Source: Promethearchaeota archaeon
GTDB lineage: Archaea > Asgardarchaeota > Odinarchaeia > Odinarchaeales > JBHLKK01
Assembly: GCA_048939465.1 (NCBI GenBank)
Contig: JBHLPL010000082.1
Location: 1 to 8,696 of the forward strand
DNA: 8,696 nt
Reading direction: 5' to 3'
The notes below the pieces were generated by a model, which had not been told where the DNA came from, made no database searches, and saw only the letters and a program-made list of their open reading frames with translations. A program made the translations under genes and the position numbers. Shown here piece after piece: positions 2,953 to 5,668 of the stretch. How positions within the stretch are numbered: the first letter of the stretch is position 1; the number at the start of each line of letters is the position of its first letter.

Positions 2953-3666
2953 ATGTACGAGGAGCTAGCCAAATATTATGACTTAATGTATTCATGGAAG
3001 GATTATAAGCAAGAGGCAGATCGGATTAGAGAGCTGATCTCTGTTTACAAGAAATCTGATGGTAATGAGCTTCTTGATGTTGCCTGCGGAACGGGGAAGC
3101 ACCTGAAGCATCTAAAAAGAGATTTCTCTTGCACAGGCATTGATATTAGCAAAGAAATGCTGAATGTTGCGCGGCAGAATGTGAAGGGAGTCAGATTCAT
3201 TCAAACGGATATGGTAACATTAGATTTGGATAAGAGATTCGATGTAGTTATTAGTCTGTTTAGCTCAATCGGTCATGCAGAAACCTATGAGAATTTGAGA
3301 AAGACCATCAACAGTATTGCCAATCACCTAAAAGTTGGTGGTGTCGCGATCGTTGAACCGTGGATCACCAAGTCGATGTTCAAGGGAGTAGGGTTACCCT
3401 TTATGATGACATATGACGGAGAAGATGTAAAGATAGCAAGGCTCAATATTTCGAAGAAGATTGAAGGAAATTCCATGCCACTGGAATTCCACTATCTGAT
3501 TGCTGAGAAAGATAAGGATGTTAGATATTTCGTGGACAGACACGAGATGGGAGTCTTTGAGAGAGATAAGACTTTAGAGTTCATGGAGGAGGCCTCCCTT
3601 GAGATGGAATTTCTTGAGAAAGGTCTTACAGGGAATAGGGGACTTTTTGTAGGAGTTAAGAAGTAG
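2953..3666 (+). CDS. Class I SAM-dependent methyltransferase resembling TylM1/DesVI-type N-methyltransferases
   Basis: N-terminal Y...A.YYDLMY..KDY..EA, LLDVACGTGKH, GIDIS..ML, FDVVISLFSSIGH, HLKVGGVAIVEPW. GGGGAG RBS at 2941..2946. Confidence 0.9.
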   Translation: MYEELAKYYDLMYSWKDYKQEADRIRELISVYKKSDGNELLDVACGTGKHLKHLKRDFSCTGIDISKEMLNVARQNVKGVRFIQTDMVTLDLDKRFDVVISLFSSIGHAETYENLRKTINSIANHLKVGGVAIVEPWITKSMFKGVGLPFMMTYDGEDVKIARLNISKKIEGNSMPLEFHYLIAEKDKDVRYFVDRHEMGVFERDKTLEFMEEASLEMEFLEKGLTGNRGLFVGVKK

Positions 3667-5668
3667 ATCCTTCGCTCATCTCAGTGCCATCTGTTTTGCT
3701 TCTGCCTTTCCGTTTTTTGCGGTTCATTATCTTGTCCAGCTCCTCATAGAAGATTACATCCTCTCCTCTGATCAGAAACCTGATTCTGAGGTCGTCAATG
3801 TTTTCATTGATCCACGAATCTTTCTCCTTCCAATCCCTGAAGGCGTCATTGCTAACAACGAATGCGTTCTTTCTTTTGGTGTATTTAATGATGAAGCTGT
3901 CTGCATCGGTTTCCGCCGGAGCTTCTAGTAGAATGCCTTCCTTCTTAAGTTCGTTGAAAGTCTCTATATCTTCAATGCTGTGGCGAAGCGATGCCCCGAC
4001 GATCGCGATTATCTCTCTGAATCCTTTATCTTTCAACGATTCGGCAACAAGCCTTATATTCTCGGCAGAGGGTTTATCACCCATCTTTTTGGAACCATGA
4101 CCCCATGCAACGTTGCTTCCATCAATGACCACGAATTTATCAGAAGGTTTGGTCGGCAAAGGCCCACCTTCAATTCTCCTGATGAACTCCTCTCGCGTTT
4201 TCTTCTTATGGTATAACCAGTAGCCAAAAGCGGCGATTATTCCAACACCTGATGCCCCTATCATTGCGTAAAGGGTATAAGCGTAGCCAATAACTATTAT
4301 CTTACTGTCTGCTGATTCATTTCCTGCATAATCTCTTGCCGCGACTGTAAAGTTAAAGACTCCCAGATATCCAGAAAGAGCCAAATTATCCTCAGTCGTA
4401 TTTGCAGAAATCGACCCGTTGATATACACTGTGTACTCCTGGATGCCATAATTATCGCTGCCAAGCCATCTGAGTACAGGAGTATCCCAAAAATAGATCC
4501 CGATATTGGATGGCGAAGTAATCGAAATCTCAGGTGGAGTCAGGTCATCCTCCAGACAGTAAATACTATAATCGGCAGATCCAACGTATATTCTTCCTTC
4601 GAACACAGCGGGTGAGGAGTAGATATGGCCATCCGTTTCGTACTTCCATATAAGGTTTCCAACATCGGCTCCAAGACAGTAAACATGATCGTCATGAGAT
4701 CCGATGTAGACCTTGTCATCTACCACAGCGGGCGAAGAGGAGATAAGACTCTCCATCTCGTACGTCCAGATCGGATTGCCAGTTCTTGCGTCCAGACAGC
4801 CAACGTAGCCCCAGACGTCCATATTCGAACCTATATATAGCCTACTGCCAACTATCGCAGGGGAGGATTCTATGAAGTTGCCTGCTTGATAGTCCCAGAG
4901 TTGACTGCCTGTATTGGAGTTTAGACAGTATATGTGGCCATCATAAGATCCCGTATAGATTTTGCCTGCTGAAAAAGAAGGAGAAGAGTAGATACCACCT
5001 CCAGTCTTATAGCTCCAGATCAGACTGCCGTTATCAGCTCTTAGGCAGTAAACGTATGTATCGCCAGAGCCTATAAAGACACTGCCATCAGCAACAGCAG
5101 GCGACGATCCGACCCACATGCCTGTTGGATATTTCCACACAAGGCTGCCATTTTCAGCATTCAGGCAATATACGTAATTATCGTAGGAACCTATATAGAC
5201 CCTATCATTAACCACAGTCGGAGAGGATTCAATGCGATCACCTGTTTTATATCTCCATACTAGGCTGCCATTATCGGCATTTAAGCAGTAAATGTAGGTA
5301 TCCCAAGAACCTACGTAGACCTTTCCATCTGCCACAGCTGGAGAAGACCTGACATTGCTCATTGAGTACTTCCAGACTGGGCTGCCATTCTCTGCATCCA
5401 GGCAATACAAATAGTCATCATAAGAACCCACATATACCCTATCGCCAACAGCGGCTGGTGAGGAGACTACGTAGGAATCCGTCTCATAAACCCATTTCAG
5501 GAATGGGTCCTCGGGGCCTGTGCCAGCACTAGAGCCTGTGTGTGTAGGATTGTTTCGAAACATGGACCATTGCCCTCTGGATGGGGAAGGCAGGAAAACC
5601 AATAAAACAAAACCAAACAGAACGGCAATTGTGAGTTTTTTGCTCAGCCTCAGGATGTATTCCCCCAA
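3656..5668 (-). CDS. Single-pass membrane protein: signal peptide + 8x PQQ-like beta-propeller repeats + Ig/FN3-like domain + TM helix + cytoplasmic Zc3h12a/Regnase-like NYN RNase domain
   Basis: aa 7-32 basic then hydrophobic leader. aa 57-373 eight W.Y.....SSP.V....VYIGS.D..VYCL.A..G repeats. aa 374-460 DLTPPEISITSP...TVAARDYAGNES. aa ~462-486 TM followed by HKKK. aa 511-641 VVIDGSNVA...TDADSFII...VVSNDAFRD. TTG start with AAGGGAGA at 8 nt spacing. Confidence 0.92.
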   Translation of the reverse strand: MGEYILRLSKKLTIAVLFGFVLLVFLPSPSRGQWSMFRNNPTHTGSSAGTGPEDPFLKWVYETDSYVVSSPAAVGDRVYVGSYDDYLYCLDAENGSPVWKYSMSNVRSSPAVADGKVYVGSWDTYIYCLNADNGSLVWRYKTGDRIESSPTVVNDRVYIGSYDNYVYCLNAENGSLVWKYPTGMWVGSSPAVADGSVFIGSGDTYVYCLRADNGSLIWSYKTGGGIYSSPSFSAGKIYTGSYDGHIYCLNSNTGSQLWDYQAGNFIESSPAIVGSRLYIGSNMDVWGYVGCLDARTGNPIWTYEMESLISSSPAVVDDKVYIGSHDDHVYCLGADVGNLIWKYETDGHIYSSPAVFEGRIYVGSADYSIYCLEDDLTPPEISITSPSNIGIYFWDTPVLRWLGSDNYGIQEYTVYINGSISANTTEDNLALSGYLGVFNFTVAARDYAGNESADSKIIVIGYAYTLYAMIGASGVGIIAAFGYWLYHKKKTREEFIRRIEGGPLPTKPSDKFVVIDGSNVAWGHGSKKMGDKPSAENIRLVAESLKDKGFREIIAIVGASLRHSIEDIETFNELKKEGILLEAPAETDADSFIIKYTKRKNAFVVSNDAFRDWKEKDSWINENIDDLRIRFLIRGEDVIFYEELDKIMNRKKRKGRSKTDGTEMSEGSTS
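4550..5500 (-). repeat. Eight intragenic ~120-bp (40-aa) coding repeats = propeller blades
   Basis: SSP at aa 69, 108, 148, 188, 228, 268, 311 and 351. DNA-level similarity is visible, e.g. GGCTGCCATT-like words near 5020, 5140, 5260 and 5380 on the + strand. Confidence 0.93.

Follow-up and report, generated by a model that had tools for sequence, protein, structure and literature searches.

Can a single membrane protein of an archaeon connect the outside of the cell to the cleavage of RNA inside it? This question is raised by a gene at positions 3656-5668 of the minus strand in an 8,696-nucleotide contig of a Promethearchaeota archaeon (JBHLPL010000082.1, assembly GCA_048939465.1), which was analysed over its whole length and is referred to here as the window. 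In animals, NYN nucleases of the Regnase type play key regulatory roles in mRNA decay and antiviral defence, and Asgard archaea are the closest archaeal relatives of eukaryotes. The product of the gene (hereafter, the window protein) carries an NYN ribonuclease (RNase) domain of this type, apparently intact, behind a large ectodomain and a single transmembrane (TM) helix; its domain architecture is a new variation on a known enzyme family. We propose that it might be a one-component transmembrane RNase controlled by an outside ligand and related, through a swap of ectodomain, to a wider family of TM-anchored NYN proteins in Asgard archaea, an explanation which, taken as a whole, we regard as evenly balanced between right and wrong.

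The C-terminal part of the window protein matches PF11977, the Regnase-type Pfam family, with an E-value of 1.1e-20 (74.4 bits against a curated cut-off of 23; residues 511-651, covering 146 of the 154 profile positions), and the genome-level search gave 78.3 bits. Modelled with AlphaFold2 (AF2) from a 72-sequence alignment, the C-terminal 176 residues are folded with a mean predicted local distance difference test (pLDDT) score of 89.8, and in the full-length model the NYN domain exceeds 90. Foldseek comparison of the NYN model with the Protein Data Bank (PDB) retrieved ZC3H12C, ZC3H12B, Regnase-1 and KHNYN first (7ndk, 6sjd, 3v33 and 5h9v among the entries), followed by PRORP, with E-values down to 3e-10, TM-scores by target length (TMt) of 0.72-0.78 for these first matches and, for the ZC3H12 entries, a root-mean-square deviation (rmsd) of ~2 Å. 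Sequence searches of the PDB lead to the same proteins, ZC3H12A/B/C and KHNYN, at 9e-8 with the single sequence and 2e-19 at best with the family profile, which finds these entries at 1e-19 to 1e-14. An earlier reading of the window, made from the letters and a list of open reading frames (ORFs) without database searches (hereafter, the sequence-only reading), had named a Regnase-like NYN domain, and the family match and the ~2 Å superposition on ZC3H12C and Regnase-1 bear this out. The analyses that it had proposed point the same way: the Pfam scan returned PQQ propeller families (PF13570, PF13360) along with PF11977, and comparison of the AlphaFold model with Regnase-1 through Foldseek placed 3v33 and 5h9v among the top matches.

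The candidate catalytic residues of the NYN domain are D516, N519, D590, D608 and D612. Four of them, D516, D590, D608 and D612, align with the site-A residues D141, D226, D244 and D248 of Regnase-1 (Matelska et al. 2017, PMC5499597), such that four of the five active-site Asp positions of Regnase-1 are retained. Among 72 relatives, D516, N519 and D608 are invariant (72/72), D590 is present in 71 and D or E at position 612 in 68. The sequence-only reading had placed D516, D588/D590, D608 and D612 correctly, and both D588/D590 and S606-N607-D608 are indeed present in the domain; its DAD motif, however, is really A-D, the equivalent of D225 being Ala. With Regnase-1/ZC3H12A-D, KHNYN and N4BP1 the window NYN domain shares the Pfam family, the fold and the IDGSN, (D)D.F and SND.[FY]RD motifs, at sequence identities of 26-28% to ZC3H12A-C and 22-24% to KHNYN. 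Unlike these eukaryotic proteins, which are soluble, the window protein comes from an archaeal host, has Ala at the D225 position, lacks a CCCH finger or other RNA-binding module, and has its NYN domain anchored at the membrane, with a large ectodomain ahead of it. The function of the prokaryotic members of PF11977, which included 23 archaeal sequences in the 2017 survey of the PIN superfamily, is listed as unknown (PMC5499597). Sequence and model argue strongly for Mg-dependent RNA cleavage by the NYN domain at the membrane face, and we consider the window protein likely to be an active cytoplasmic RNase. Prediction of an NYN homodimer (two copies, alignment A1) gave a score of 0.00, which is evidence neither way.

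The fusion of propeller, TM helix and NYN domain is real, because it recurs in contigs of three other sequencing runs and in two diverged orthologues, and because selection acts on all of its parts. Logan contigs from the three runs (mangrove and other sediment metagenomes of at least two studies) each cover positions 3400/3438 to ~4710 unbroken, spanning the NYN domain, linker, TM helix, stalk and first blades, and unitig breaks fall only inside the repetitive propeller, near 4700. The orthologues P0003 (627 aa as called from an internal Met) and P0004 (661 aa), both from other samples, have the same continuous layout; over residues 400-670, P0003 shares 87% and P0004 85% identity with the window protein. 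The genome collection contains two other species of the genus, each with the 5' part of the gene, truncated at a contig end. Pairwise ratios of nonsynonymous to synonymous substitution rates (dN/dS), computed at dS of ~0.7-1.9, are 0.11-0.135 in the propeller, 0.09-0.16 in the stalk, 0.03-0.08 in the TM helix and linker and 0.035-0.05 in the NYN domain; every domain is thus under purifying selection, the nuclease most of all. A mis-joined gene or assembly chimera might be suspected in a short contig (8.7 kb) of a 152-contig metagenome-assembled genome (MAG), particularly where propeller repeats break the unitigs, but unbroken contigs from independent runs, the same continuous ORF in diverged orthologues and codon-level purifying selection throughout reduce this explanation to a practically negligible probability. 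The sequence-only reading would have counted a lack of read support or of any second genome against the fusion; contigs from three independent runs and two diverged orthologues speak for it.

The gene is a single uninterrupted ORF of 670 codons and a stop codon, translated from TTG. At positions 5669-5671 and the following codon the window reads CTG-TTG where the orthologue L019 (~499-501) reads ATG-TTG; because the ATG of the orthologue is replaced by CTG, the start codon in the window must be TTG or CTG itself. The public gene call begins at the internal M36 and the signal peptide is therefore lost from the database protein. Four relatives (P0004, L003, L004 and L018 upstream) keep the 35 upstream codons as a signal peptide, residues 8-30 form the strongest hydrophobic peak of the window protein, and residues 2-24 are modelled as a helix by AF2. 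One unbroken ORF with a signal peptide, as first read from the letters, is found to be conserved.

Outside the membrane, the protein would display an eight-bladed propeller of the pyrroloquinoline quinone (PQQ) type. Not only are the Pfam matches strong (PF13570, 8e-76; PF13360, 7e-52), but eight SSP-anchored repeats of ~40 aa each are found at residues 69-351 and the full-length AF2 model shows eight four-stranded blades with pLDDT >90, in agreement with the eight blades counted in the sequence-only reading. The best Foldseek match of the propeller is the designed eight-bladed protein Cake8 (TMt 0.95, rmsd 1.2 Å), followed by BamB and YxaL. In the NCBIfam search, neither the cut-off of the BamB equivalog TIGR03300 (201.5 against 285.2 bits) nor that of the PQQ-dependent dehydrogenase TIGR03075 (101.7 against 480 bits) was reached; the propeller therefore belongs to the BamB/PQQ-dehydrogenase fold class without being either protein. 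BamB, YxaL and secreted archaeal PQQ-repeat propellers are of the same superfamily and have eight blades as well, whereas the window propeller, unlike BamB and YxaL, is joined via a TM helix to a nuclease. Its closest paralogues (48-49% identity) are proteins of ~410 aa from the same genus that have a hydrophobic N-terminus and a propeller and no NYN domain, and the ectodomain was probably drawn from a lineage-specific expansion of PQQ-type propeller genes. Nine places in the window genome match PQQ-type propellers, the window gene included, on six contigs (the others being C48, C131, C141, C79 and C36); among them are a 979-aa multi-propeller protein and a 410-aa propeller protein that has a hydrophobic N-terminus and shares 48% identity with the ectodomain.

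Residues 374-460 might form an immunoglobulin (Ig)-like stalk. The match to Big_7 is weak (E 0.009), tblastn with residues 373-461 finds matches in large surface proteins of related Asgard genomes, and AF2 predicts strands at low pLDDT; the Ig/FN3-like domain of the sequence-only reading is consistent with these hits and strands, although support of this kind, including a low-confidence model, is weak.

A second hydrophobic peak follows at residues ~457-485, with acidic residues ahead of it and HKKKTREEFIRR (HKKK) after it, and the TM helix is conserved in the orthologues, as expected from the TM helix and KKK noticed before. The segment GGPLPTKPSDK of the linker, which had been called Pro-rich, is so only mildly. 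With 24-26 residues, the linker puts the core strand of the NYN domain ~26 residues from the membrane. All eight N-x-S/T sequons of the window protein, four in the propeller and four in the stalk, precede the TM helix and none follows it; those in the propeller belong to the repeated blade motif NGS. These positions had all been read correctly. As proof of topology, the asymmetry of the window protein alone was rejected, given that the shuffled cytoplasmic part yields no sequon 37% of the time (P = 0.37). At the level of the Asgard TM-NYN family, described below, there are 10-15 sequons before the TM helix and 0-1 after it. Given the conserved signal peptide, the TM helix with acidic residues outside and HKKK inside, and this family-level pattern, an N-out/C-in topology, as already put forward from the letters, is strongly suggested, and we place high confidence in the architecture and topology of the window protein together. 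The coordinates of all features are collected in Table 1.

Table 1 Features of the NYN gene in the window, with the evidence for each
Feature	Residues	Position	Strand	Description and evidence
Whole gene	1-670	3656..5668	-	Predicted type-I membrane protein with cytoplasmic NYN RNase domain; ORF, Pfam, orthologues
Shine-Dalgarno-like GGGAGA		5677..5682	-	8 nt upstream of the TTG start; sequence reading of the window and L019
Signal peptide or N-terminal anchor	1-32	5573..5668	-	KK, hydrophobic core, then PSPSRG/QW
Eight-bladed PQQ-like (BamB/YxaL-type) beta-propeller	55-374	4547..5506	-	Pfam, repeats, AF2, Foldseek
Putative Ig-like beta-sandwich stalk	375-460	4289..4546	-	Four sequons; Big_7, tblastn, predicted strands
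Single TM helix	461-486	4211..4288	-	GYAYTLYAMIGASGVGIIAAFGYWLY; second hydrophobic peak; kept in orthologues
Basic juxtamembrane linker	487-510	4139..4210	-	HKKKTREEFIRRIEGGPLPTKPSD...; spacing common to the Asgard TM-NYN family
NYN/PIN-like endoribonuclease domain (PF11977, Regnase type)	511-651	3716..4138	-	Pfam, AF2, Foldseek
Lys/Arg-rich C-terminal tail	652-670	3659..3715	-	NRKKRKGRSK; translation; low pLDDT; orthologue tails basic too

PF11977 domains were found in 85 of the 201 sampled Asgard genomes. Two Asgard families have forms of 570-650 aa (in 19 of 21 and 7 of 7 genomes), and another has stand-alone forms of ~170 aa (39 of 43 genomes). In most of the long forms, a signal peptide is followed by an ectodomain carrying 10-15 sequons, a single TM helix and the NYN domain. 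In a maximum-likelihood (ML) tree of prokaryotic NYN domains, the TM-anchored forms make up one clade with support of 100/98, into which nearly all TM-anchored representatives in the global library fall. With this Asgard TM-NYN family the window protein has in common the signal peptide, the sequon-rich ectodomain, the single TM helix, the basic linker of 26-27 aa and the C-terminal PF11977 domain. Furthermore, the distance from the TM helix to DGSN is 26-27 residues in the window protein and several family members, and their linkers start similarly, with LY[FWH] followed by basic residues. Judging by this common spacing and linker start, the window gene is probably a relative of the family in which the ectodomain was swapped. 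The differences lie in the ectodomain, which combines a PQQ-type propeller with one Ig-like domain in the window protein and contains several Ig/CARDB-like domains in the family, in the NYN domains, which are only 29-38% identical, and in the genomic neighbourhood. Pfam analysis of two family ectodomains gave no match for one and sub-threshold CARDB/TRAP_beta matches for the other, with no PQQ or other propeller in either. The latter ectodomain, from family f14 (L012, 1800-2950), matches TRAP_beta (translocon-associated protein beta) at E 2e-4 with 21.2 bits (cut-off 22.4) and, in an overlapping stretch, CARDB weakly; this is probably just an Ig-like sandwich.

The combination of PQQ propeller and NYN domain is found only in three close clusters of one genus; it is absent elsewhere among the best 150 of 937 NYN relatives in a library of 1.8 billion proteins, and a whole-protein search of genome contigs for related loci confirmed none. 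The nearest NYN sequences (~45-50% identity) are mostly soluble proteins, many of ~460-500 aa, from bacteria (with a Bacteroidota-like context) and other archaea. No description of a membrane-anchored or receptor-like NYN architecture was found in the searchable full-text literature, a scope that does not extend to the supplementary tables of Asgard surveys. The view of the sequence-only reading that no characterised prokaryotic protein has this architecture therefore holds for that literature, but the architecture is not isolated, since a wider Asgard TM-NYN family exists; the window protein probably belongs to an as yet undescribed Asgard class of membrane-anchored NYN RNases. The TM-NYN proteins offer a natural experiment, in which one TM-NYN module is combined with different ectodomains, and bear on the origin of the eukaryotic PF11977 family.

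What might such a protein do? We propose that it is a type-I membrane glycoprotein whose propeller, borne on the Ig-like stalk outside the cell and followed by one membrane helix, would serve as a protein- or glycan-binding scaffold and not as a PQQ enzyme. About 26 residues inside the membrane, an NYN endoribonuclease of Regnase type (PF11977), apparently intact and with a basic tail behind it, would cut RNA at the inner face, and whatever the ectodomain binds would control clustering or activity of the NYN domain. The result would be a one-component transmembrane RNase, similar in logic to IRE1 or RNase L and not homologous to them. That an outside ligand gates the nuclease is suggested weakly, and we put it forward tentatively, by three features, namely the purifying selection on an ectodomain of ~430 residues (33-460), the exchange of ectodomains between lineages on a constant TM-NYN module, and the short and fixed tether. 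Of the sequence-only interpretation, which is partly supported, the activation of RNA cleavage through ligand-induced clustering is purely conjectural. If this reading is true, a receptor-like NYN protein would give archaea a new link from the cell surface to RNA turnover; with only ~180 aa, the cytoplasmic fragment is readily assayed.

Several observations weigh against this proposal. The large conserved ectodomain is compatible with both simple anchoring and sensing. Residues 378-490, that is, the stalk and the TM helix, are modelled at low confidence, and the sequon asymmetry is not significant in the window protein by itself. The equivalent of Regnase-1 D225 is A589; Ala occupies this position in 59 of the 72 prokaryotic relatives, which makes it a trait of the prokaryotic clade and not a defect of the window gene. 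No CCCH zinc finger follows the NYN domain, as residues 652-670 contain neither Cys nor His and Pfam detects no zinc finger. Finally, the best ML tree leaves the NYN domains of the window trio outside the TM-NYN clade, so that membrane anchoring could have arisen twice. Joining the trio to the clade was not rejected in the approximately unbiased (AU) test (p 0.186); the alternative to an ectodomain swap is that the window protein acquired its membrane anchor independently of the Asgard family.

It is also conceivable that the TM helix and ectodomain only localise a constitutive RNase, for example at the cell surface lattice or near translocons, with no outside signal, and that RNAs near the membrane, mRNAs for secreted and membrane proteins among them, are trimmed or degraded by the enzyme. 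In bacteria, RNase E and RNase Y likewise act at the membrane. The short fixed tether of 26-27 aa suits a role at the membrane face, PADLOC gave no matches, a related Asgard family (f4) is single-copy and has the same housekeeping genes around it in five genomes of four genera, and another TM-NYN family (f14) adjoins alkaline phosphatase. Yet a TM helix alone would suffice as an anchor, whereas an ectodomain of ~430 residues is maintained by purifying selection (dN/dS 0.09-0.16), and ectodomains that vary by lineage on a constant TM-NYN module are more typical of sensors with changing ligands. We consider mere tethering a serious alternative, albeit on the unlikely side, and the same applies to the suggested role in trimming membrane-proximal RNAs.

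The housekeeping neighbourhood just mentioned is a co-directional array of genes for a class-I/II aminotransferase, the TM-NYN protein, a ~235-aa winged helix-turn-helix (wHTH) protein, and the beta and alpha subunits of the proteasome (L014, L015, L050, L051, L052). In family f14, a gene for alkaline phosphatase (PF00245) directly follows the TM-NYN gene in three genomes (L012, L013, L053). A functional link between the membrane NYN RNase and the proteasome genes is possible. wHTH regulators and proteostasis genes recur near the TM-NYN and window genes, and a tie to proteostasis, hinted at by Hsp20 in the window and the proteasome subunits in the related family, is likewise possible. Homology between the ArsR-type regulator of the window and the wHTH protein beside the TM-NYN genes was considered and is not supported (E 0.052).

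In the window, the NYN gene is flanked by a convergent gene for an S-adenosylmethionine (SAM) methyltransferase, with an 11-bp overlap of the 3' ends, and stands head-to-head with a divergent operon (5870-7576, plus strand) encoding an ArsR/HTH_5 regulator (135 aa), Hsp20 (179 aa) and a TraB/PrgY-like protein (239 aa). The contig of the 87%-identical orthologue P0003 (L018) keeps this neighbourhood, with Hsp20, HTH_5, the NYN gene, the methyltransferase and PEMT. A search of PADLOC-DB 2.0 gave no meaningful match for the window protein and two TM-NYN family members; the window regulator matches only Csa3/CasR-type wHTH models, a generic HTH similarity. Such fixed neighbourhoods, with no match in PADLOC, are the pattern that a stable cellular gene would show and differ from that of a defence island.

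This pattern bears on whether the protein could be an antiviral sensor, in which a virion or viral protein on the propeller would trigger indiscriminate RNA cleavage and stop the infected cell. Confinement of the PQQ-NYN combination to one genus and exchange of the ectodomain are as in arms races; conflict systems of animals combine NYN with beta-propeller modules (Kaur et al. 2021, PMC8195603), and eukaryotic Regnase-1 and KHNYN restrict viral RNA (PMC5499597). However, the window protein and its relatives have no PADLOC match, their neighbours in the window are methyltransferases and the ArsR-Hsp20-TraB operon and not defence or mobile genes, synteny is retained between species, all domains are under strong purifying and not diversifying selection, and the related TM-NYN family is vertically stable. 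An abortive-infection sensor is therefore improbable, and the abortive defence entertained in the sequence-only reading finds no favour in a locus with nothing in PADLOC, no defence island and a syntenic, single-copy related family.

Even less probable, to the point of being scarcely credible, is a secreted or surface-delivered nuclease toxin in the style of polymorphic toxins, the NYN domain being exported against competitors. The signal peptide, the repeat scaffold and the C-terminal nuclease resemble such toxins superficially. Yet a conserved stop-transfer TM helix with positive-inside residues lies ahead of the NYN domain, the 3' end overlaps the convergent methyltransferase gene with no immunity gene downstream, and the NYN domain is the most conserved part of the protein, not a variable cassette.

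Returning to the proposed ligand-controlled transmembrane RNase, the closest parallels are in design. IRE1 and RNase L resemble it in logic only, with a sensor on one side, a single TM helix (in IRE1) and a cytoplasmic RNase switchable by oligomerisation. IRE1 has a kinase and a KEN RNase, whereas the window protein has a PIN/NYN RNase and a BamB-type propeller as the ectodomain, and Pfam detects neither a kinase nor a Ribonuc_2-5A (KEN) domain in it; the comparison with IRE1 made in the sequence-only reading is thus apt as an analogy of design and does not extend to homology. RNase Y and the PIN-TRAM proteins of COG4956, which have four TM helices, are endoribonucleases at the cytoplasmic membrane, as proposed for the window protein, and membrane-bound PIN-like proteins are listed in the survey of the superfamily (Matelska et al. 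2017, PMC5499597). These enzymes differ from the window protein in their N-terminal anchors, in the lack of a large extracellular domain and in their nucleases, which are of the HD/KH or VapC-type PIN kinds. A broader idea, which we regard as doubtful, is that there is a modular class of one-pass receptor RNases in Asgard archaea, in which exchangeable sensors (Ig-like arrays or, in the window protein, a propeller) on a fixed TM-juxtamembrane-NYN unit would turn a cue from outside or from the envelope into membrane-proximal RNA cleavage. If true, such modular receptor RNases would be a prokaryotic forerunner, in logic, of regulated IRE1-dependent decay (IRE1/RIDD) and of endoplasmic reticulum (ER)-associated decay by Regnase-1.

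The window itself is contig C1 of a 1.96-Mb, 91%-complete MAG. A eukaryote-type actin (PF00022, 8e-134) and an ESCRT-II Vps25-like protein, both encoded in this genome, identify the host as an Asgard archaeon. Three tubulin/FtsZ-family genes are present as well; a profilin search gave no match, and neither did its controls. Four methyltransferase genes are present on the contig, at 1241-1909(-), 2334-2927(+), 2953-3666(+) and 7683-8438(-); three encode class-I SAM enzymes, one of them with an N-terminal membrane segment, and one a PEMT/ICMT-like membrane enzyme. The gene at 2953-3666(+) is the convergent one with the 11-bp overlap described above. A possible PhzF-like protein, recognised by eye from the translation, is encoded at 1-678(-) and runs off the contig end, adjoined by a GNAT acetyltransferase gene at 570-1052(-); the two ORFs as listed overlap by ~100 bp and the start of the PhzF-like gene is therefore probably further downstream. 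In the representative library, PF11977 was also seen, in a different membrane layout, at the C-terminus of P0109, a protein of 631 aa with three N-terminal hydrophobic segments (residues 55-142) and a coiled-coil-like middle part.

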